Shown: piece after piece, positions 3,377 through 39,469 of the stretch
Position numbering within the stretch: position 1 is the first letter of the stretch
Layout of the letters: each line of letters opens with the position of its first letter
DNA from: a virus
Taxonomy: Duplodnaviria; Caudoviricetes
Virus record (IMG/VR): IMGVR_UViG_3300013121_000032
Location: 32,001 to 96,000 of that record
Direction: 5' to 3' (one strand)
Length of the DNA stretch: 64,000 nt
Notes under the pieces: generated by a model
What the model was told of the DNA's origin: nothing
Database searches by the model: none
The model's input: the letters and a program-made list of their open reading frames with translations, nothing else
Made by a program: the position numbers and the translations under genes

Positions 3377-4051
3377 TTACCGCATCTCAATATCCAAAGA
3401 ATTTTTATTAATCCTGTTATTTCTTCCTTCTAAATAAACAGAGTTTGGTTCTGTATCTTTAGTAATGATAGCTCCAGAACCTACCAATGTTCCTTCTGCT
3501 AATATCACTTCAGGAGATATTACAGCATTGGCACCAATAAAGCAATTATTTTTAATAATACAACTAGAGCAAATAACTGTTCCTGTTGTAATCCAACAGA
3601 AATCTCCTATAGAAGCATTATGACCTATATGGCTACCAGCCCAAATAATGGTTCCTTGACCAATTTTAGAACCAGTTTGTATTTGACAATTTTCTTGAAT
3701 CCAAGAACCTTCACCAATATCTGTTCCATACCATATCTTGGTAGATGGATGGATTAAGGTTAAAAGCTTACCACCCCACTCTTTCCATCTATTAAATTTA
3801 AGCTCTCTTACTTTATTCATCATCCTATAAGAAATAGGTAGGAAAAGATGGGCTGGAGCTTCACCAACTCTTAAAGAGTCATTAATAAGATTAGCATTAA
3901 ATTTATGTACAATAGTTTTTCGCCATTCCGGCATAGCTATATATTCAGGATCAGCTACAAGAGAAATCTTTTGAAATTCAGCATCTTTCAAATATTCAAA
4001 AGCTACTCTAGCTAATTCTCCTTGTCCAAATAAGAAAATATCAGGTTTCAT
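3377..4051 (-). CDS. PglD/NeuD-type sugar N/O-acyltransferase (left-handed beta-helix)
   Basis: N-terminal LFGQGELA, hexapeptide repeats, catalytic HIGHN, FIGANA. Confidence 0.9.
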   Translation of the reverse strand: MKPDIFLFGQGELARVAFEYLKDAEFQKISLVADPEYIAMPEWRKTIVHKFNANLINDSLRVGEAPAHLFLPISYRMMNKVRELKFNRWKEWGGKLLTLIHPSTKIWYGTDIGEGSWIQENCQIQTGSKIGQGTIIWAGSHIGHNASIGDFCWITTGTVICSSCIIKNNCFIGANAVISPEVILAEGTLVGSGAIITKDTEPNSVYLEGRNNRINKNSLDIEMR

Positions 4052-4288: not shown

Positions 4289-5191
4289 TTAAGACCTATA
4301 GAGGGGAAAATACTTAGATTCTTTATTTACATTTTTGCTTAACATATCATAAATTTCCTGATTATGGATATGTTTAATAATTTTATTTGTTTTTATAAAG
4401 CTCCCCCAACCAGATTTAAATCGGGAAAGACCACCATTATTACCAGATGTATGTTCAGCACCTAAAATTAAATACCTATAACCTAAATGCTTAAATACTG
4501 TAATAGCATGATTAATGATAAGATAGCTATTACCATTTTCATATCCTTCTAATGTACTAGCTCCTATATGAAAATAAACATCTTGATTTTGAATATAGAA
4601 AAGACCAAAACCGAGAAAATGTCTACTCATTCCGACCATATATGACCTTAATAAAAAGTTATTAAAGCATAAAGAGCCTGGAACACTGAAAAGCTTTTTA
4701 AATGTTTCTAAATCATAATTTGTAATATAGTCCTCTGGAGTAGAGTGGCGCTTCATTAATTCTTGATAGCATTGCCATTGGAGATTAGAAGGAGGCCCTA
4801 CATTAATTTCTATTTCTCCTTTAGCTTTATTTACATTCCTCTTATGTTGCTCTGAATATTTAGATATGGAGGAATCTTGGAGATCCACAATATAGTGGTC
4901 TTTGTAAGGTTGTCCATATCTAATATACTCAGAAGTTTTTATAGGATCAATTGGAGGGGTAATGATTAAAGAGCTAATAGCTCTATCATCTATCTTAGGT
5001 CTATGTGGAAAAAAGGAAAACGGATATGGGCTAATATAATCAAAATAATCTGTATTTGGAATTTTTCTTTTAATTAGACACGAACCTGTTTGAGGATCAG
5101 ATAGCACCTCACCTAAACGGGTAAAGGTGTCTAAATATTCTTGAGATAGATAACCAGTTCTCACTAATCCATACATCCATGAACAAAGCAA
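4289..5191 (-). CDS. FemAB/BioF2-like GNAT-fold acyltransferase
   Basis: YSEQHKRNVNKA, YFHIGAS...GY, LILG....GLSRFKSGWG, C-terminal YFPLYR. Confidence 0.75.
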   Translation of the reverse strand: MLCSWMYGLVRTGYLSQEYLDTFTRLGEVLSDPQTGSCLIKRKIPNTDYFDYISPYPFSFFPHRPKIDDRAISSLIITPPIDPIKTSEYIRYGQPYKDHYIVDLQDSSISKYSEQHKRNVNKAKGEIEINVGPPSNLQWQCYQELMKRHSTPEDYITNYDLETFKKLFSVPGSLCFNNFLLRSYMVGMSRHFLGFGLFYIQNQDVYFHIGASTLEGYENGNSYLIINHAITVFKHLGYRYLILGAEHTSGNNGGLSRFKSGWGSFIKTNKIIKHIHNQEIYDMLSKNVNKESKYFPLYRS

Positions 5192-31104: not shown

Positions 31105-31481
31105 GGTTAAATATGGATTTTGTTTTACTAAAAAATCAATTACGAGTAGTGGCTGGAGATATTCCAGGTGGAAAATATTCTATTAATAATAATGGATTAC
31201 TTTCTTTAAATGATCAAATTATTGATCTTCCTAAATCTTTAGTAAGTGTAGAAGAACAATCCTCTACACAAGCTAAAAATTGGTTGCTTGGAGCGGCTGC
31301 TTTACCTTTTATACTGGTAGCTCCTTTATTGGCTATTATAGCTGGATTATTAGCAGTACATATAGGAACTACTCAGAATGTATGTGCTCTATATACTTTG
31401 AAAGATGGAAAGAAATTCATTGGAATTTCTACATTAGAAACTTTTAATACTTTAAAAGCAATCAGTGGATTGACAGCTTAA
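31101..31481 (+). CDS. membrane protein
   Basis: Central hydrophobic hairpin. Confidence 0.65.
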   Translation: MRLNMDFVLLKNQLRVVAGDIPGGKYSINNNGLLSLNDQIIDLPKSLVSVEEQSSTQAKNWLLGAAALPFILVAPLLAIIAGLLAVHIGTTQNVCALYTLKDGKKFIGISTLETFNTLKAISGLTA

Positions 31482-31530: not shown

Positions 31531-33162
31531 ATGAATACCTATACAGAATTCTCTACATTAAAAACTCCTCAATCTCAGCCTATTCTTGGTGAGAGTATGG
31601 AGCAAAATAATGCTGGAGGATTCTCGTATACGGTAGATAAATGGCAATTACTTAAACGTTTCCTAATTCTAGGCACAGATCAAGGAACTTTCTATGCTAG
31701 ACCCCAACCATTAACAATTGAGGCTGCTAAAAATATTCTTGATTGTATTAAAGAAGATGGTAAAAGGACTGTAAATGAAATTGTTTCTATTTCGGAAAGC
31801 TATAAGGCGGCTACGAATGATCCTGCTATTTTCGCCCTTGCCCTTTGCACGTCACCTAAATATGCTTCTGAAGAAACTAGAAAATTAGCATTTTCTAAGT
31901 TGATGAAAGTATGTAGAATTCCTACTCATCTATTTAAGTTTGTAATGATTGCAGAGCAACATAGAGGTTGGGGAAGTGGTCTTAAACATGCTGTTGCTAA
32001 TTGGTATAAATTAACACCTCCTAATAAATTGGTTTATTTTCTGACAAAGTATAAGAGAAGGGGTGGCAAACAAGCTGGTTTCTCCCATAGAGATCTTTTA
32101 AAGCTTTCCCATCCTAAAAATGTCTCAACTGAAAAGAATACAATTTTTCGGTGGGCAGTTGGAAAGTTAGAATCTCTTGACAAAGCAGGAGAAACCCCTT
32201 CTCTTAATTATTTGAGGGCTGTAGAGGATGCTGCTACTGCTCCAACTGGACACTTGGTTAATTTAATTAATACATATAAGCTACCATTGGAAGTAATTCC
32301 TAGTGAGAAACATAACCATGAAATTTATGGAGCAATCCTTAAACATGCTGGTATTGAATTTATTCTAAGAAACTTGGGAGTAATGACGGCTAACAATACT
32401 CTAATTCATGGATTGGGAAATGTTAGTTTTGTTTATGATAAATTCCATACCAAAGAATTTCTGGAAAAACTTCACCCCATAAAGATTTTGGCAGCTTTAT
32501 TAGTATATAAAGCTGGTAGTAGTTATTCTGGAACTAAATTTAAAAAAGAGAAGGCTATTGTATGGAAGCCAATTACAGCAATTATTGATGCTTTAAATGA
32601 TGCATTTAGATTGTCATTTGAAACTGTAGAGCCATCAGGAAAGAGAATTCTTCTAGCAATAGATACTTCTGGAAGTATGAATCATGCTGTAGCTACGGAT
32701 ATTAGTTTTATGAATGCTTATACAGCAGCAGGAGCTATTGCTTTAATTACAGCAGCAACTGAAAAAGACCCTTTTATTATGCATTTTAATACTAAAGCAT
32801 CTCCAGTTAATATTTCTGCTAAACAAAGGCTTGATGATGTTATTGCTACATTAAAGGGTCTTGGAGGAGGAGGTACTAATTGTGCATCTCCAATTACTTA
32901 TGCAACAGAGCATAAGATACCTATTGATATCTTTGTAATCTATACAGATTCAGAAACTTGGCAAGGAGACATTCATCCTACTCAAGCTTTAGATCAATAT
33001 AGAAAGGTAATGGGAATTGATGCTAAGCTTGCTGTAGTAGCAATGGCTTATAATAGATTTAGTGTAGGATCTTCTGAGAATGATCCTAGAGTTCTCCAAT
33101 GTGTAGGTTTATCAACAGATACTCCAGCAATCATATCTATGTTTGCTAGAGGTGAAGTTTAA
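31531..33162 (+). CDS. rsr: Ro60/Rsr TROVE-domain RNA-binding protein with vWA domain
   Basis: NNAGGF, L.RFLILGT..GTFY, CRIPTHLF, RGWG, KY.RR, SHRDLLKLSHP, LRNLG.M, HP..IL.A...Y, DTSGSM, GGTNC, YTDSETW. Confidence 0.95.
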   Translation: MNTYTEFSTLKTPQSQPILGESMEQNNAGGFSYTVDKWQLLKRFLILGTDQGTFYARPQPLTIEAAKNILDCIKEDGKRTVNEIVSISESYKAATNDPAIFALALCTSPKYASEETRKLAFSKLMKVCRIPTHLFKFVMIAEQHRGWGSGLKHAVANWYKLTPPNKLVYFLTKYKRRGGKQAGFSHRDLLKLSHPKNVSTEKNTIFRWAVGKLESLDKAGETPSLNYLRAVEDAATAPTGHLVNLINTYKLPLEVIPSEKHNHEIYGAILKHAGIEFILRNLGVMTANNTLIHGLGNVSFVYDKFHTKEFLEKLHPIKILAALLVYKAGSSYSGTKFKKEKAIVWKPITAIIDALNDAFRLSFETVEPSGKRILLAIDTSGSMNHAVATDISFMNAYTAAGAIALITAATEKDPFIMHFNTKASPVNISAKQRLDDVIATLKGLGGGGTNCASPITYATEHKIPIDIFVIYTDSETWQGDIHPTQALDQYRKVMGIDAKLAVVAMAYNRFSVGSSENDPRVLQCVGLSTDTPAIISMFARGEV

Positions 33163-33168
33163 AAAGTT

Positions 33169-33256
33169 TGCAGGCATAGAGAAACGGAAGTCTCAATGGG
33201 TTCATATCCCTTTGCTTAATAGCCTTGGTAGGTTCAACTCCTACTGCCTGCGCCCA
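33169..33256 (+). tRNA. non-canonical tRNA-Met(CAU)-like RNA with long variable arm
   Basis: Acceptor GCAGGCA/TGCCTGC; D-arm GAGA-AACGGAAG-TCTC; anticodon arm GGG-TTCATAT-CCC; 15-nt variable region with GCT-TAAT-AGC; T-arm GTAGG-TTCAACT-CCTAC; CCA at 33254-33256. Confidence 0.85.
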
Positions 33257-33276: not shown

Positions 33277-33438
33277 ATGACAGATTCGTTACTTTGTTTA
33301 TTCTCATCCTTGTTTTTAATCTATTGTTCTGTTATGTTTTTTGTATCACCAGATTCTAATGCCCATATAGCGGGATTTATATTAGGATTTGTAGCATTAG
33401 GTTATGCAATTGCCTCAATTAAATTGAGTAAACAATAA
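33277..33438 (+). CDS. small 2-TM membrane protein (53 aa, not in ORF track)
   Basis: AAAGGA RBS; MTDSLLCLFSSLFLIYCSVMFFVSPDSNAHIAGFILGFVALGYAIASIKLSKQ. Confidence 0.6.
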   Translation: MTDSLLCLFSSLFLIYCSVMFFVSPDSNAHIAGFILGFVALGYAIASIKLSKQ

Positions 33439-33512: not shown

Positions 33513-34874
33513 ATGGATAATCAAGTTGCAGAAGCACCGGCAGTAGAAGAAAAGAAAGAGATTGATTACAGAGGTGTAGTCAAGAAACTTGATGAACTTA
33601 AAGATGGTGCTGTTGTTCAACGTATTGCAAATCCGCCTAATGTTAAAATACCTAAATTTTTTATCCTTGACAAGCTTAAAAATAGCTATCAAAAAGGTGT
33701 TAAAGAAGTTGCTTTGTTTGATACTAAGAGTTTTAATAGGCGCTCTTTGTATATTCCTGAGGGTACCGAAGTAAAAGAGCTTACTGGTCGCCAAGGAAAA
33801 GAATTCTTGGCAAGATTTTTGAACCATCAACGTTCTCAAATTTTTACAAACCTCCAATCAGTGTTTATGACAATTGGATCTGATCCTGAAATCTTTATAG
33901 AGGATGCTGGTGGAAATATTATTCCAGCTTTTACATTCCTTAAGAGCAAAGCTGATGCTGATAAATCTCCAAAAAATGAATTGGGTGGAGATATGAAAGT
34001 TTATTGGGATGGTTTTCAAGCTGAATTTGAAACAACTGCTCCTTTGTGTCATGCCCATCTTGCTGATTCCATTAGAACAAGTTTGAAAAATCTTTTGAGC
34101 TTGGCTAAAAAAGCTAATCCTACAGCTAGACTTTCCTCAAGAACTGTAGTTCAAATTCCAGATGCTGAATTGGATCGAGCTTCTGAAGAACATGTAACAT
34201 TTGGTTGTGCCCCTTCGATGAATGTCTATGAGATTGAAGGAAAACGAGAAGATGGTAGAGTAGTTCCTTATAGGTTTGCTGGTGGACATATCCATTTGGG
34301 AATTGGAAAACGTTCTCAAAAGGAAGTAGATGAGATTGTAAAGACTTTGGATGCCATTGTAGGTCTTGCTTCTGTATCTCTTTTTGCCAATCAAGATGAT
34401 CCTATTAGAAGGGAATATTATGGATTGCCTGGAGAGTATAGACTTCCTCCACATGGTATTGAGTATAGAACTCTTTCTAACGCTTGGATGTTCCATCCAG
34501 TTATGATGAATTTGATCTTTGCTCTAACACGTAGAACAGTTGCATTTGCAGTAGCTGGTCATAGAAGGCATATTCTGGCAACAGAACAAGAAATTGTTGA
34601 AACTATTAGAAGCTCTAATGTAGAACAAGCTAGAAAAATTATTGAGCGTAATAAGGATATCTTCTTGGGTCTACTTAAGACAGCTTTTAAGGTTGACAAA
34701 GCTGCTGAAGTTGCTTATAATGTAATCATGAAAGGAATGGAGGAAGCAGTAGAAAATCCTAATGACATAGCTAAAAATTGGAAATTGGATTCTGATTGGT
34801 TGCAACATTCTTCATCTGAAGGGTGTAATTGGAAATCAGTTTACGAGAAAGTAGCTAAAGGTGAAAAGGTCTAG
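33513..34874 (+). CDS. phiEco32-like COOH.NH2 ligase type 2
   Basis: TIGSDPEIF, DGFQAEF, FGCAP, RFAGGHIHLG, RREYYG..GEYR, GIEYRTLSN.W. Confidence 0.9.
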   Translation: MDNQVAEAPAVEEKKEIDYRGVVKKLDELKDGAVVQRIANPPNVKIPKFFILDKLKNSYQKGVKEVALFDTKSFNRRSLYIPEGTEVKELTGRQGKEFLARFLNHQRSQIFTNLQSVFMTIGSDPEIFIEDAGGNIIPAFTFLKSKADADKSPKNELGGDMKVYWDGFQAEFETTAPLCHAHLADSIRTSLKNLLSLAKKANPTARLSSRTVVQIPDAELDRASEEHVTFGCAPSMNVYEIEGKREDGRVVPYRFAGGHIHLGIGKRSQKEVDEIVKTLDAIVGLASVSLFANQDDPIRREYYGLPGEYRLPPHGIEYRTLSNAWMFHPVMMNLIFALTRRTVAFAVAGHRRHILATEQEIVETIRSSNVEQARKIIERNKDIFLGLLKTAFKVDKAAEVAYNVIMKGMEEAVENPNDIAKNWKLDSDWLQHSSSEGCNWKSVYEKVAKGEKV

Positions 34875-35122
34875 AGGTGGTCCATCTCCAAAAGACCTAA
34901 TCAAAAAGGTAGCTTAGAGCCGGTTATAGATGTTTATCAGCTTTTATGAAAAATACATTTATAGATTTTTGTTCCAAGCTATTTATTAAGAAAATTAATT
35001 GGAAATAGAATAATCAATAATAATTCCAGCTAAATCTAAAAGACACGTCCCCTCAGTCTTAAACAGATCGAAGCTATAATAACAAGGTTCTAGACTAGAA
35101 GATTAATTTTCTTAAAACAAAT

Positions 35123-35151
35123 AAAAGTCCCTGGAAAAAACAGGGACTTTT
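35123..35151. terminator. bidirectional intrinsic terminator
   Basis: AAAAGTCCCTG-gaaaaaa-CAGGGACTTTT. Confidence 0.85.
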
Positions 35152-35260
35152 ACATTTTGTAATGATAGACTTTTACTATGAGAAATTTAAAAGTTTGCTA
35201 ACTTTTTAGGTATAACTTTCTGGTCTTCAGAAGATACCTAGTTTGTAGTTTTATATATTT

Positions 35261-38200
35261 TTGGAGAAGCATATGTATTCAATTACTGATGCTAGTTTTT
35301 TGTCTGAAGAATTCTTAAATCAATATCAAGGTAAAAGACCACTACATGCTGGAGTACTATTTGATGTAGTGTATCTTAGAACTTACTCTAGATGGAGGGA
35401 TGATATTCAAAGAAGGGAAACTTGGTTAGAAACAGTACAGCGGGTAGTTGAATATTCATTTAGTCTCTATACAGGGCATTATAGTAGTGATGCTTTAATT
35501 ATTGAAGCTCAAAATTTATTTGATGATATCTTTAATCTAAGAGTTTTGCCAGCAGGAAGAACTCTTTGGATTGGTGGAACTCCATCATCATATAAATTTG
35601 GTGAAAGTAATTTTAATTGCTCATTCGCAGTAATTAATTCCATTGAATCTTTTACAGATCTATTTCATTTACTATTGTGTGGTTGTGGTGTTGGTTTTAG
35701 AATTTTGGAATCTGATATTAAAACTCTTCCAAAGTTTGGTAAGGTTTCTATCAAGCATAAAGATTATTTTCCTGTTCATGAGAAGCTTAGATTTGATAGA
35801 ACAACAATTGATTATGAAGATAACCAACATATCATTGAAATTGGAGATTCAAGAGAAGGTTGGGTAGATGCTTTAAGATGTTTTTTAAATATTAGTGCCT
35901 CTAATGCAGAAGCAAAAATAGTTTTAAACTATAACAGAATTCGCCCTGAAGGATCAAGGATCAAAACATTTGGTGGAAAGGCTCCTGGTCCAAATGGGCT
36001 TAGAGAAATGTTTTCTAATATTGGAGAAATTATTAATTCATCTACTGGAACTTTAACTCCAGTAAATGTAATGGATATTTGTAACTTCATTGGCAAGAAT
36101 GTAATTATTGGAGGTACTAGGAGATCTTCTCAGATTGCATTAGGCTCTCCTGATGATAGTGAATTTCTAAATGCTAAATTAGATCTTTGGAAAACAAAAA
36201 CTAATCTCCAAAGAACAATGTCAAATAACTCAGTTGTTTTTACTAGTAAGCCAAATAAAGAAATAATTGAAACAATTTTTAAAAATATTAAAAATAATGG
36301 AGAGCCAGGCTTTTTTAATTTAGGGGCAGCTAGAAAAAGAAGACCTAATGTACATGGTCTAAATCCTTGCAAACCATTAAAATCATTAATTTTAACAGAC
36401 CAAGGATATATAACTTTTGAACAAGCATTAAAAATGGAATCTTTGAAAGTAGTTTTAAAAGATGGTTCTATAGTTAATGCATCAAAACCATTTAAAACAG
36501 GGACAAATAGACCTGTTCATAGATTTTTACTTTCTAATGGAGCATATATTTATGCTACAGGAAATCATCTCCATAGAGCTGCTAATGGAGAATGGTTGGA
36601 AGCAGATAAATTCTATCCAGGATTAGAATTAGATTATGGTATTCCTAAAGTTTTAGCATATGGACCTATTACAAATGAAGAGGATTATAAACAAGGAATT
36701 CTTTCTGGATGGATTCATGGAGATGGAAGCCTTTCAGAAAGAAAAGATACTAAAGGATATACTACTCAACTTTGTTTTGGCTATCATGAATTAGATGTAA
36801 CTAATATATTTGAGAATATGTTTAATAAGTCATCGGTTCCCCATTTCCAAAACCCTGATACTTGTAAAGTTATAACCTCTCATAAAGTAGACATAATTAA
36901 AAAGCTAATAGATAAAGGAATGTCTCTTAATAAAGAAGATCTTTCTTGGTTGTATCTACAAAGTAGAGATTTTAAATTAGGTTTTATTAAGGCACTTTTT
37001 ACAGCAGATGGATTAGTTAGAAAAAATGGATTAGTAGAGCTTTACTCATCAAGAAGAATGGCTTTAGATGTTGTTGCTAATATCTTAAGAGAATTCGGAG
37101 TTTATTGTAATATTACAACCCATAATAAGGCAAAAACATATATTGCTAAAGATGGAAAAATTAGAAACAATAGTACCTCCTTCAAGATTACTATATATGG
37201 TGGACAGTTTAAACAAATCGGTTTTATATCTGAATTAAAACAAGAGCTTTTAAATAGGCATGAATTTAAAGCTCCATATAGGCCATATAAACTAAAGATT
37301 AAAGAGATAGATTGGAATTATTCTATAGAGGATGTTTATGATATTACAGTTGATCATCCTGATCATTATTTTATAGATGCATCATCTATAGCACATAATT
37401 GCGCAGAGATACTTTTAGACTCTCAGGGATTCTGTAATTTATGTACTATTAATTTACATTCCTTTGTTAAAGGAACCTCTGATTTTAAACGAAAAAAATT
37501 AGCTGGAGCTATTAAAAGAGCAGTTAGGCTTGGATTAAGAGCTACTAATATTACTGTTTCCCTTCCTGAATGGGATAAGAAACAAAAACGGGATAGGCTT
37601 TTAGGTGTTTCGTTAACTGGTGTAATGGATGCTTTTGATCATCTAGGATGGTCATATAATTCCTCAGAAGCTATCCAATTACTATGCTGGATGAGGGATA
37701 TTGCTAATAAAGAAGCAAATAGGTATGCACATGAAATGCGTGTTCCGTGTCCTTTATTAGTAACTTGTGTGAAACCTGAAGGATGTTGGACAAAGGAGTA
37801 TACAAGAACCTTTGATCAAGGAATCCTATTCTTAGATGAAATTTATAATGATATTGAGAAGCACGATGGTTTTCATAATCTTCATGTTAGAAAATTAGCT
37901 ACTAGATATTCATCAAATGGTTATGGTGTTACCAAGACTTATACTAATCATATTAAACCAATTAAAAAAATAACATTAAGGAATGGAAGAGTTCTTAAAA
38001 TTACAGAAGAACATCCAATGTTTATTAGAAATATTAAAAATATAAATGGCTTTGGGTCTTGGGTTAAAGCCAAAGATTTAAAGCCTGGTATGGAAATAGA
38101 TAGTAGTCTTGGAAGCTATACCCGTATAATTGAAGATAGATTATTAAATAGTTCTTTAGATGGACTTAGGGCTGATACAAAAGACTATCCAACACCTAAG

Positions 38201-39469
38201 GCACTTTCCCCAAATTTAGCATGGCTTATTGGCTTATATTGGGGAGATGGATGCTTCACCTCAAATAATAGAATTAAATTAATTGGGGCAGAATTAGATA
38301 TTCATCTAAAAGCTCAAAAGATTTGGAAAGAGCTATTTAATGTGGAGACTACTATTAAACAATGTACAGATAGGAAGGGTTGGACTCAAGATTTTCAATC
38401 AGCTAAATTAAGGAGATGGTTCTTTGAAAATGGTTTAGATAAAGAAAGTCATACTGACTTAACAAAATTGCCAGAAAGAGTAAGAAGAAGTAGTAAAGAA
38501 TCCATTATTGCTTTTATTGCAGGTTTATCAGATGCAGATGGCTGTTTTGCAAATAAAAGTTTTTGCATAGATAATAAAAGTGAATTTTTTATGAGACACC
38601 TACAAGAAGTAGGTGAAGCTGTGGGATTGTGTTTTGGATTATCTATTAATAAACAAAGATTAAATTCACATAGTAAAAAGCCTATATATAAATTACATCT
38701 TTCTAGGACTGGATCTATTAAAGAATCTATGGATTTAATCAATAAACATTCCATTAAAGGTAATTCTAAACCTATAGAATTTTCTCAAAACTCTAATAAA
38801 ACATTCTACCCTTACTCTATTAAGAGTATAGAAGAGGGAGAACAAGAACAGACTTTTGATATAGAGGTTTCTGGTGTCCATTGGTACTATCAGGGTGGAT
38901 TGAAAAGTCATAATACTTTATCTCAGCTTCCTACAGTAAGTAGTGGATTACATAGGGCATATGCTCCTTATTATATAAGACGAATTAGAATCTCTGCTAT
39001 GGACCCTGTAGCTAAAGCCCTTCAAAAGCTTGGATTATCATTTGAGTATGACCATGGAAAAAAAGAACGGTTGGTTTTTTCATTCCCTATTAAGACTGAT
39101 GCTAAATTAGCAGCAAACAATGAGTCTGCTATAGACCAATTTAATAGATATCTAACCTTCCAAAAGTTTTATACAGATCATAACTCTTCATGTACTTTAA
39201 CTATTGGTGAAAACGAATGGGAAAGTATTGTTAATTCTGTTTATTCTAATTGGAATGATGTTATTGCTTGTGCATTCCTACCTAAATATACAGATGCCTA
39301 TCCTCAAATGCCTTATGAAGAAATCTCTAAAGAGAAATATGAGGAAATGGTAGAAAAATTTCCTAATTTAAAGAATCTTGAAGATTTGGTTAATGAAATT
39401 GAAATTCAAGAGTATGAAGATGTAGAATTAGATTCTGACTGTTCTTCTGGTGTATGCCCTATTAGATGA
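35261..39469 (+). CDS. nrdJ: class II (adenosylcobalamin-dependent, monomeric type) ribonucleotide reductase with two inteins
   Basis: VYLRTYSR, PAGRTLW, NFNC, GCGVGF, GGTRRSS, SNNS, GEPG, NP|CAEI, FCNL, KPEG|TLSQL, TDHNSS, C-terminal CSSGVCP; spliced length about 680 aa. Confidence 0.95.
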   Translation: MEKHMYSITDASFLSEEFLNQYQGKRPLHAGVLFDVVYLRTYSRWRDDIQRRETWLETVQRVVEYSFSLYTGHYSSDALIIEAQNLFDDIFNLRVLPAGRTLWIGGTPSSYKFGESNFNCSFAVINSIESFTDLFHLLLCGCGVGFRILESDIKTLPKFGKVSIKHKDYFPVHEKLRFDRTTIDYEDNQHIIEIGDSREGWVDALRCFLNISASNAEAKIVLNYNRIRPEGSRIKTFGGKAPGPNGLREMFSNIGEIINSSTGTLTPVNVMDICNFIGKNVIIGGTRRSSQIALGSPDDSEFLNAKLDLWKTKTNLQRTMSNNSVVFTSKPNKEIIETIFKNIKNNGEPGFFNLGAARKRRPNVHGLNPCKPLKSLILTDQGYITFEQALKMESLKVVLKDGSIVNASKPFKTGTNRPVHRFLLSNGAYIYATGNHLHRAANGEWLEADKFYPGLELDYGIPKVLAYGPITNEEDYKQGILSGWIHGDGSLSERKDTKGYTTQLCFGYHELDVTNIFENMFNKSSVPHFQNPDTCKVITSHKVDIIKKLIDKGMSLNKEDLSWLYLQSRDFKLGFIKALFTADGLVRKNGLVELYSSRRMALDVVANILREFGVYCNITTHNKAKTYIAKDGKIRNNSTSFKITIYGGQFKQIGFISELKQELLNRHEFKAPYRPYKLKIKEIDWNYSIEDVYDITVDHPDHYFIDASSIAHNCAEILLDSQGFCNLCTINLHSFVKGTSDFKRKKLAGAIKRAVRLGLRATNITVSLPEWDKKQKRDRLLGVSLTGVMDAFDHLGWSYNSSEAIQLLCWMRDIANKEANRYAHEMRVPCPLLVTCVKPEGCWTKEYTRTFDQGILFLDEIYNDIEKHDGFHNLHVRKLATRYSSNGYGVTKTYTNHIKPIKKITLRNGRVLKITEEHPMFIRNIKNINGFGSWVKAKDLKPGMEIDSSLGSYTRIIEDRLLNSSLDGLRADTKDYPTPKALSPNLAWLIGLYWGDGCFTSNNRIKLIGAELDIHLKAQKIWKELFNVETTIKQCTDRKGWTQDFQSAKLRRWFFENGLDKESHTDLTKLPERVRRSSKESIIAFIAGLSDADGCFANKSFCIDNKSEFFMRHLQEVGEAVGLCFGLSINKQRLNSHSKKPIYKLHLSRTGSIKESMDLINKHSIKGNSKPIEFSQNSNKTFYPYSIKSIEEGEQEQTFDIEVSGVHWYYQGGLKSHNTLSQLPTVSSGLHRAYAPYYIRRIRISAMDPVAKALQKLGLSFEYDHGKKERLVFSFPIKTDAKLAANNESAIDQFNRYLTFQKFYTDHNSSCTLTIGENEWESIVNSVYSNWNDVIACAFLPKYTDAYPQMPYEEISKEKYEEMVEKFPNLKNLEDLVNEIEIQEYEDVELDSDCSSGVCPIR
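36368..37399 (+). mobile_element. LAGLIDADG intein 1 in NrdJ (344 aa), at the catalytic NP/CAE cysteine
   Basis: Starts CKPLKS, ends IAHN before Cys+1; TGNH; GWIHGDG and KALFTADG. Confidence 0.95.
37784..38914 (+). mobile_element. LAGLIDADG intein 2 in NrdJ (377 aa), at KPEG/T
   Basis: Starts CWTKEY, ends KSHN before Thr+1; TEEHP; GLYWGDG and AGLSDADG. Confidence 0.95.

Follow-up and report, generated by a model that had tools for sequence, protein, structure and literature searches.

A putative phage initiator tRNA with a long variable arm, encoded beside Ro60, and its relatives in phage genomes

The tRNA(CAU) gene at positions 33169-33256 (+ strand) of the 64,000-nucleotide stretch of phage DNA analysed here (the window) combines an initiator-type body and an encoded CCA with a long variable arm. 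Judged from its sequence, the gene belongs to a widespread phage family rather than being the one-off chimera of initiator, class II and tRNA-Sec-like features described in the original prediction, and it is somewhat probable that it encodes a working phage initiator tRNA(CAU), probably a spare for a host initiator targeted by defence nucleases. In textbooks, long variable arms are confined to Leu, Ser, Tyr (in bacteria) and Sec tRNAs, while initiator tRNAs are, to our knowledge, presented there as being among the most uniform RNAs known. No description of a long-arm initiator-type phage tRNA family was found in the literature searched.

The tRNA gene and its predicted fold

ARAGORN called the gene as tRNA-Met(cat), and Rfam model RF00005 matched it with a score of 41.7 bits (cut-off 29; E 3.9e-7 in the local search and 8.7e-9 in the search of the whole phage). 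It is the sole tRNA of this IMG/VR phage record (by Rfam, and by ARAGORN on the full genome), which is 121,235 bp long and 100% complete by CheckV. The ViennaRNA minimum-energy fold of 33169-33256 is a cloverleaf that includes the variable hairpin (z = -2.9).

All elements lie on the + strand. N1 (U33169) stands opposite N72 (G33252) as a weak U.G pair, the acceptor 5' strand GCAGGC (positions 2-7) and an extra A33176 occupy 33170-33176, and U8 and A9 connect this strand to the D arm (GAGA / AACGGAAG / UCUC, 33179-33194, with A11:U24 and G18 G19). A26 separates the D arm from the anticodon arm (AUGGG / UUCAUAU / CCCUU, 33196-33212), in which the anticodon CAU lies at 33203-05 and is flanked in the loop by U32 and U38. 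The variable region of 15 nt (33213-33227) is made up of a U, the strand GCU (33214-16), a UAAU loop, the strand AGC (33221-23) and the tail CUUG, and is followed by the T arm (GUAGG / UUCAACU / CCUAC, 33228-33244), by an extra U33245, a nucleotide found in no other family member, and by the acceptor 3' strand GCCUGC with N72, the discriminator C33253 and CCA 33254-56 (33246-33256). The assignment of U33169 as N1, G33252 as N72 and C33253 as discriminator is based on family homology and on the encoded CCA right after N73; with the alternative 5' end at G33170, 1:72 becomes a full G:C pair and the discriminator G73. The elements named in the original prediction are all borne out by direct reading, including the GGG/CCC pairs of the anticodon stem and A11:U24, the 15-nt variable region with its GCU/UAAU/AGC hairpin, and the encoded CCA behind discriminator C33253 and an acceptor of U33169.G33252 plus 7 bp.

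Compared with bacterial tRNA-fMet (E. coli metZWV/metY type), the phage tRNA has the same CAU anticodon, the same three G:C pairs closing the anticodon stem (29:41, 30:40 and 31:39; GGG 33198-200 / CCC 33208-10), A11:U24, G2:C71 and C3:G70 (in the register with N1 = U33169), and canonical D and T loops; in that register 1:72 would also be weak, a U.G wobble pair. U8, A14, G18G19, U33, A37 and U54-U55-C56 are kept. However, it is without the standard A73, 7/5 stack and short variable loop of tRNA-fMet, having instead C73 (or G73), 13 rather than 12 acceptor/T layers, and a 15-nt base-paired variable arm where tRNA-fMet has a 5-nt loop. It also has U.G rather than CxA at 1:72, the loop UUCAUAU rather than CUCAUAA, and a U28xU42 mismatch in the anticodon stem. 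The base-paired long variable arm is class II-like, but the tRNA has no class II anticodon or identity set.

The acceptor/T stack can be drawn in two ways. GCAGGCA (33170-76) and UGCCUGC (33245-51) form 7 Watson-Crick pairs, with U33169.G33252 as a possible eighth layer, as in the 8/5 geometry that had been proposed. U33245 may nevertheless pair with either A33176 (8-layer acceptor, 5-bp T stem) or G33227 (7-layer acceptor, 6-bp T stem). Both registers give 13 acceptor/T layers as against the usual 12, and to this extent the proposal holds, but 8/5 is only one register of the two and ViennaRNA favours 7/6, with G33227.U33245 paired and A33176 unpaired. The 7/6 register restores an A15:U48 Levitt pair (15:48 is G:C or A:U in 32 of 54 family members among the matches listed) as well as the 3-nt variable-arm tail typical of the family, and an equivalent of A33176 is present, unpaired, in the family subgroup L028/L051/L109. 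Six paired nucleotides lead from G2 to the T stem in 56 of the 57 scorable members among the matches listed, and seven only in the present tRNA.

A likeness to bacterial tRNA-Sec (8/5) had likewise been suggested, and the 13 acceptor/T layers and the long variable arm are indeed shared. Sec identity, however, lies in a UCA anticodon and a 6-bp D stem, whereas the phage tRNA has CAU, a 4-bp D stem and a variable stem of 3 bp, and its extra layer may be a sixth T-stem pair; the likeness is superficial.

Long-arm initiator-type tRNAs in phage genomes

An initial search of IMG/VR combined GGGTTCATATCCC with a 15-30 nt gap and the T-loop motif and returned six loci with tRNA(CAU) genes of 82-89 nt within phage tRNA arrays. 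A relaxed scan of IMG/VR, in which only TCATANCCC (UCAUAN-CCC), the 15-30 nt gap and the T loop were fixed, returned at least 119 loci, in which ARAGORN identified at least 81 long (at least 80 nt) tRNA(CAU) genes, ~64 of them distinct and with a GGG/CCC anticodon stem. Base pairs across these sequences were counted on a structure-anchored parse. N1 and N72, which flank a conserved GCGGGG-type six-pair helix, are mismatched in 45 of 64 members among the matches listed (Watson-Crick in 16 and G.U in 3), compared with a 1:72 mismatch in 9 of 604 (1.5%) non-CAU tRNAs from the same loci, which served as a control. Other positions not forced by the search pattern are similarly uniform among the matches listed, with G2:C71 in 56/63 and C3:G70 in 56/63 (89%), A73 in 49/64 (77%) and A11:U24 in 38/62, and 22 of the 64 members listed encode CCA directly after N73. 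The 1x72 mismatch, G2:C71, C3:G70, A73 and A11:U24 are the hallmarks of bacterial initiator tRNAs.

The variable region of the family is 11-22 nt long. Within the class of 12-16 nt, 25 of 36 members among the matches listed fit a layout in which a single nucleotide is followed by a 3-bp hairpin with a loop of 3-5 nt, and the hairpin by a tail of 2-5 nt, a layout that arose in 12.5% of trials with shuffled sequences. A hairpin test without fixed position was barely above shuffles when applied to the variable regions of the family, while the position-fixed test was clearly above them. The helix covaries across the family, with 15 different stem combinations (e.g. GUC/GAC, ACC/GGU, AUC/GAU, GCC/GGC and GCU/AGC), and its frequent loops include GAAA, GUAA and GCAA, the tetraloop often being GNRA. 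Because the positioned layout exceeds shuffles and fifteen stem combinations occur, the variable arm is a maintained helix. The present tRNA shares the family design down to the variable arm, in which 1 nt precedes a 3-bp stem that is closed by a 4-nt loop and followed by a tail of 3-4 nt; its U-GCU-UAAU-AGC-CUUG fits the layout, and the family member L021 has C-GCU-UAAC-AGC-CUC. Of the two features that the original prediction had proposed to follow in an alignment of homologs, the long arm is therefore conserved across the phage family, whereas none of the other scorable members has the extra base pair.

The subtype with a UUCAUAU loop was found at 6 loci in IMG/VR and 20 in metagenomes, compared with a single locus among 185,579 prokaryote species (one genome each), where it consists of repeated tRNA 3' fragments. 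The long-arm initiator-type design is phage-enriched. Generic tRNA scores of the family range from 32 to 54 bits, and several members fall under the threshold.

Related designs and neighbours were also encountered. A second initiator-like phage tRNA design of 80-82 nt (L018, L086, L095, L102, L104:8109-8188 and L121) has a normal-looking AGGUC variable loop and, on the 5' side of its T stem, a bulge of ~7 extra nt (e.g. CAUAAAC or CUCAAAC). On a Bacteroidetes MAG contig (L229:1040-1200), a long-arm initiator-like tRNA is represented by two tandem repeats of its 3' two-thirds, each following the same terminator hairpin and with a normal tRNA-Met upstream, which looks like an attachment-site duplication. 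In a phage with a family member, a GOLLD RNA (RF02032, 159 bits) lies inside the tRNA array (L024:4235-4691).

Within this family, the present tRNA is an outlier in several respects. Among the matches listed, the combination U1.G72 occurs in no other member, C73 is shared by 2 of 63 others, position 28:42, which is UxU here, is paired in 63 of 63 others, and the loop UUCAUAU is found in 5 of 64 members including this one, compared with CUCAUAA in 46. Its nearest relative among the matches listed is L109, at 70% identity, and an 'A-U-A' connector and an AACGG D loop are common to it and the subgroup L028/L051/L109. Most family members sit in tRNA arrays, whereas this one is the lone tRNA of its phage, beside Ro60. 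No close relatives were found by blastn against GenBank phages, by a Ro60 protein search in IMG/VR, by an exact T-arm/acceptor pattern search, or in a search of 5.8 billion proteins (best match 45% identity); a metagenome scan for the exact subtype gave 0 matches, and wider metagenome and genome scans returned family members but no near copy.

These departures bear on whether the gene still functions. A decaying or neutral copy, i.e. a gene that once belonged to the long-arm initiator family but has been damaged and no longer works in translation, is an unlikely explanation. The U28xU42 mismatch, the inserted nucleotide in the acceptor/T stack and G21, each unique among ~63 relatives, together with the rare C73, would be expected of such a copy, and there are no close homologs to show constraint. 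However, all five helices are otherwise intact, the conserved nucleotides from U8 to C56 listed above are kept, the extra U33245 is base-paired in either register and so is not disruptive, the encoded CCA is in register, the G+C content of the tRNA is 48% in a genome of 33.6%, and its generic tRNA score of 41.7 bits is mid-range for the family. By these measures it does not seem more degraded than its relatives, although U28xU42, the extra layer, C73 and the U.G pair at 1:72 may impair charging, formylation or P-site use.

The Ro60 neighbourhood

A full-length Ro60 ortholog (TROVE + vWA_Ro60) is encoded at 31531-33162 (+), its stop codon 7 nt before the tRNA, and the two are probably co-transcribed. 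Pfam models match the gene at 3.5e-49 (vWA_Ro60) and 1.4e-19 (TROVE); it falls into phrog_850 and is ~36% identical to actinophage 'Ro-like RNA binding proteins'. In 254 bacteria and 22 phages, the YrlA partners of Ro60, which are tRNA mimics, are encoded on its strand and within 4 kb of it (PMC4201824), and Ro60 of the Thermus phage phiLo binds two upstream Y-like RNAs (PMC12135203). The phage tRNA could therefore be a ligand or tether of the phage Ro60 in place of a YrlA or Y RNA, perhaps besides decoding, as it has the adjacency, strand and tRNA-like domain of the bacterial and phage Y RNAs (PMC4201824); this reading is nonetheless considered improbable.

The make-up of other phage Ro60 loci lends this reading part of its appeal. 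In a set of 83 (80 IMG/VR phage Ro60 loci and 3 from the TROVE co-occurrence check), a perfect T arm that does not belong to a tRNA was found within 800 nt upstream and on the same strand in 32 of 72 loci, compared with 2 of 80 downstream. In the examples that were folded, a T arm is followed by a closed acceptor hairpin and then by a D arm, which is the permuted order of YrlA, and actinophage loci carry the same YrlA-like T-arm elements just upstream of Ro60. The present phage has none, i.e. a T-arm scan found no permuted YrlA-like RNA in the 121-kb genome, the sole perfect T arm of which is that of the tRNA, and the gaps around Ro60 contained no Y-RNA-like or further structured element. Rfam gave no YrlA-type match even at the actinophage Ro60 loci that bear YrlA-like elements in the T-arm scan. 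Two stretches considered as Y-RNA-like elements were set aside: the ORF at 31113-31481 looks like a real small membrane protein, and the gap at 34875-35260 holds a bidirectional terminator alone. RtcB, an Rnl2-type ligase and a CCA-adding enzyme were searched for and none was found in the phage, so that its Ro60 is unaccompanied by these enzymes, which also speaks for an RNA partner of this kind.

The structure of the tRNA itself points the other way. YrlA and Y RNAs (Chen et al. 2014, PMC4201824; phiLo Yrl1/2, PMC12135203) share with it the place and strand next to Ro60 and the D, T and variable arms, but YrlA is circularly permuted, with a hairpin-closed acceptor that lies between the T and D arms and a Ro-binding stem made by the 5'/3' ends. 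In contrast, the tRNA at 33169-33256 has the normal topology, its anticodon loop is of the decoding kind and its CCA end is encoded; folding of its flanks revealed no extended 5'/3' terminal stem, and there is no CGAA-type bulged helix as in Yrl1/2 of phiLo (PMC12135203). The wider family also argues against a Ro60 role. Among the matches listed, 49 phage records carry a family tRNA, and a TROVE protein is encoded in 2 of them but in 0 of the 14 that are complete; in the two records with TROVE, Ro60 lies near the tRNA arrays without adjoining them. Across the family, there is no link to Ro60.

Adjacency, moreover, is found where a YrlA-like partner is available. In two unrelated IMG/VR phages, a tRNA(CAU) lies 32 nt (L158:4074-4146) and 14 nt (L168:4104-4178) past the Ro60 stop codon; both tRNAs are elongator-like and of normal length, and both coexist with upstream YrlA-like T arms, so that a tRNA adjoining Ro60 need not be its partner. 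Ro60 adjacency alone does not make the present tRNA the Ro60 ligand. It is unlikely that the adjacency is pure chance, and it fits a general habit in which phage Ro60 genes sit among tRNA and tRNA-like genes: tRNAs lie within 2.5 kb of Ro60 in 20 of the 83 phage loci, and some Ro60 genes are embedded in arrays. The link between Ro60 and the tRNA may be functional, though reading the tRNA as an initiator needs no such link. That the phage has swapped a permuted YrlA for a complete, CCA-ended initiator-type tRNA as the predicted RNA partner of Ro60 is more doubtful still. If true, this would make for a Ro60 RNP of a new type, with Ro60 either chaperoning or protecting a private, structurally odd initiator tRNA or using that tRNA as a tether, and Ro60 would be tied directly to the control of translation initiation during infection.

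Several further observations were made around these genes. Of the five tRNAs that directly follow a phage Ro60 gene, the present one included, three read AUG. Phage Ro60 lies within or is flanked by tRNA arrays in L136, L168, L197, L200, L184 and L207; L184 also has a tRNA-Pyl(cta) and a tRNA of 98 nt whose anticodon, 'taaa', has four bases, and L168 a 76-nt tRNA(tca). Downstream of the tRNA in the window, a 53-aa hydrophobic ORF (33277-33438) precedes a phiEco32-like COOH-NH2 ligase gene two genes past the tRNA (33513-34874, +; PF14395, phrog_3815), the 3' end of which contains a perfect sigma-70 consensus (TTGACA-17-TATAAT, 34693-34721, +). After this consensus comes an AT-rich gap of 386 nt that has no Rfam match and ends in a strong bidirectional terminator (35122-35152), and beyond it a 1402-aa B12-type ribonucleotide reductase (35261-39469, +) that is interrupted by an intein/homing endonuclease (LAGLIDADG_3, Intein_splicing, Hom_end).

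Predicted role in translation initiation

As a phage initiator, the tRNA would follow established tRNA-fMet biology. Host MetRS would charge it through the CAU anticodon, the host formyltransferase would accept it because of the weak 1:72 pair (U.G) together with G2:C71 and C3:G70, and the three G:C pairs would direct it to the ribosomal P site. The phage would gain an initiator tRNA when host tRNA-fMet is limiting or cleaved by defence nucleases. A peptide deformylase (PF01327, 136 bits) is encoded just outside the window (G000:C1:28761-29192(-)) and no formyltransferase was found in the phage, a combination compatible with use of the host formyl-Met pathway. A link between peptide deformylase and the tRNA family is unsupported, as the two co-occur in 3 of 49 records among the matches listed.

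Charging with an amino acid other than methionine, or a role outside the ribosome, is highly unlikely. This would comprise charging by SerRS, LeuRS or TyrRS, a lysidine-modified tRNA-Ile2, or service as an aminoacyl donor for the 300-aa, FemAB-like GNAT encoded at 4289-5191 (-), the last of these and a mis-acylated AUG reader having been put forward in the original prediction. The long arm is a class II hallmark, and a discriminator G73 would result if the 5' end were G33170; Ser identity consists of a long arm and G73. However, SerRS needs a longer variable-arm helix than the 3 bp present here, and LeuRS and TyrRS use A73, whereas the discriminator is C or G. The initiator marks of the family (1x72 mismatch, three G:C pairs, G2:C71 and C3:G70) are also foreign to Ile2, Ser and Leu tRNAs, and nothing was found in favour of a mis-acylated AUG reader.

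The donor role fares no better and is without specific support. The ORF at 4289-5191 (-) resembles Acetyltransf_6/FemAB-like GNATs in the ESM Atlas (feature score 0.98, TM 0.87), but had no sequence match in Pfam, NCBIfam, PHROGs or PDB, and the FemAB Pfam model matched nothing in the phage genome. It lies 28 kb from the tRNA on the opposite strand and is probably a sugar-modifying enzyme, as suggested by the adjoining hexapeptide acyltransferase gene (3377-4051, -). Some clusters of its Atlas look-alikes are fused to PglD-type hexapeptide or formyltransferase domains.

Among the three functions originally offered, a nuclease-resistant initiator would fit best. The purpose of a phage initiator is a matter of speculation, the likeliest being a spare that escapes host nucleases such as tRNA-fMet-cleaving VapC. 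VapC toxins of hosts cleave initiator tRNA (PMC10264068), and changes in the anticodon loops of phage tRNAs are predicted to protect them from host nucleases, although genes for tRNA-fMet are reported to be generally avoided by phages (van den Berg et al. 2023, PMC10264068). Like those nuclease-evading tRNAs, the present one is of a kind targeted by VapC and has a loop changed at 32 and 38 from the usual CUCAUAA; structural additions such as an extra arm are not described in that study (PMC10264068). Together, the changed loop positions U32 and U38, the added arm and the 13 stacked layers may make the present tRNA a poor nuclease substrate.

A large, phage-enriched family of initiator-type tRNAs with a covarying added arm breaks the textbook rule on long arms, and suggests that phages rebuild a tRNA needed by every protein, possibly to escape tRNA-fMet-cleaving toxins or to mark their own initiation. 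The copy described here adds two testable oddities, namely its 13-layer stack and its place behind Ro60, the known partners of which are tRNA mimics. If nuclease resistance or orthogonality to host factors did stem from the arm or the extra layer, this would explain why the phage keeps a single tRNA, and engineered initiator tRNAs would have a natural scaffold to build on.
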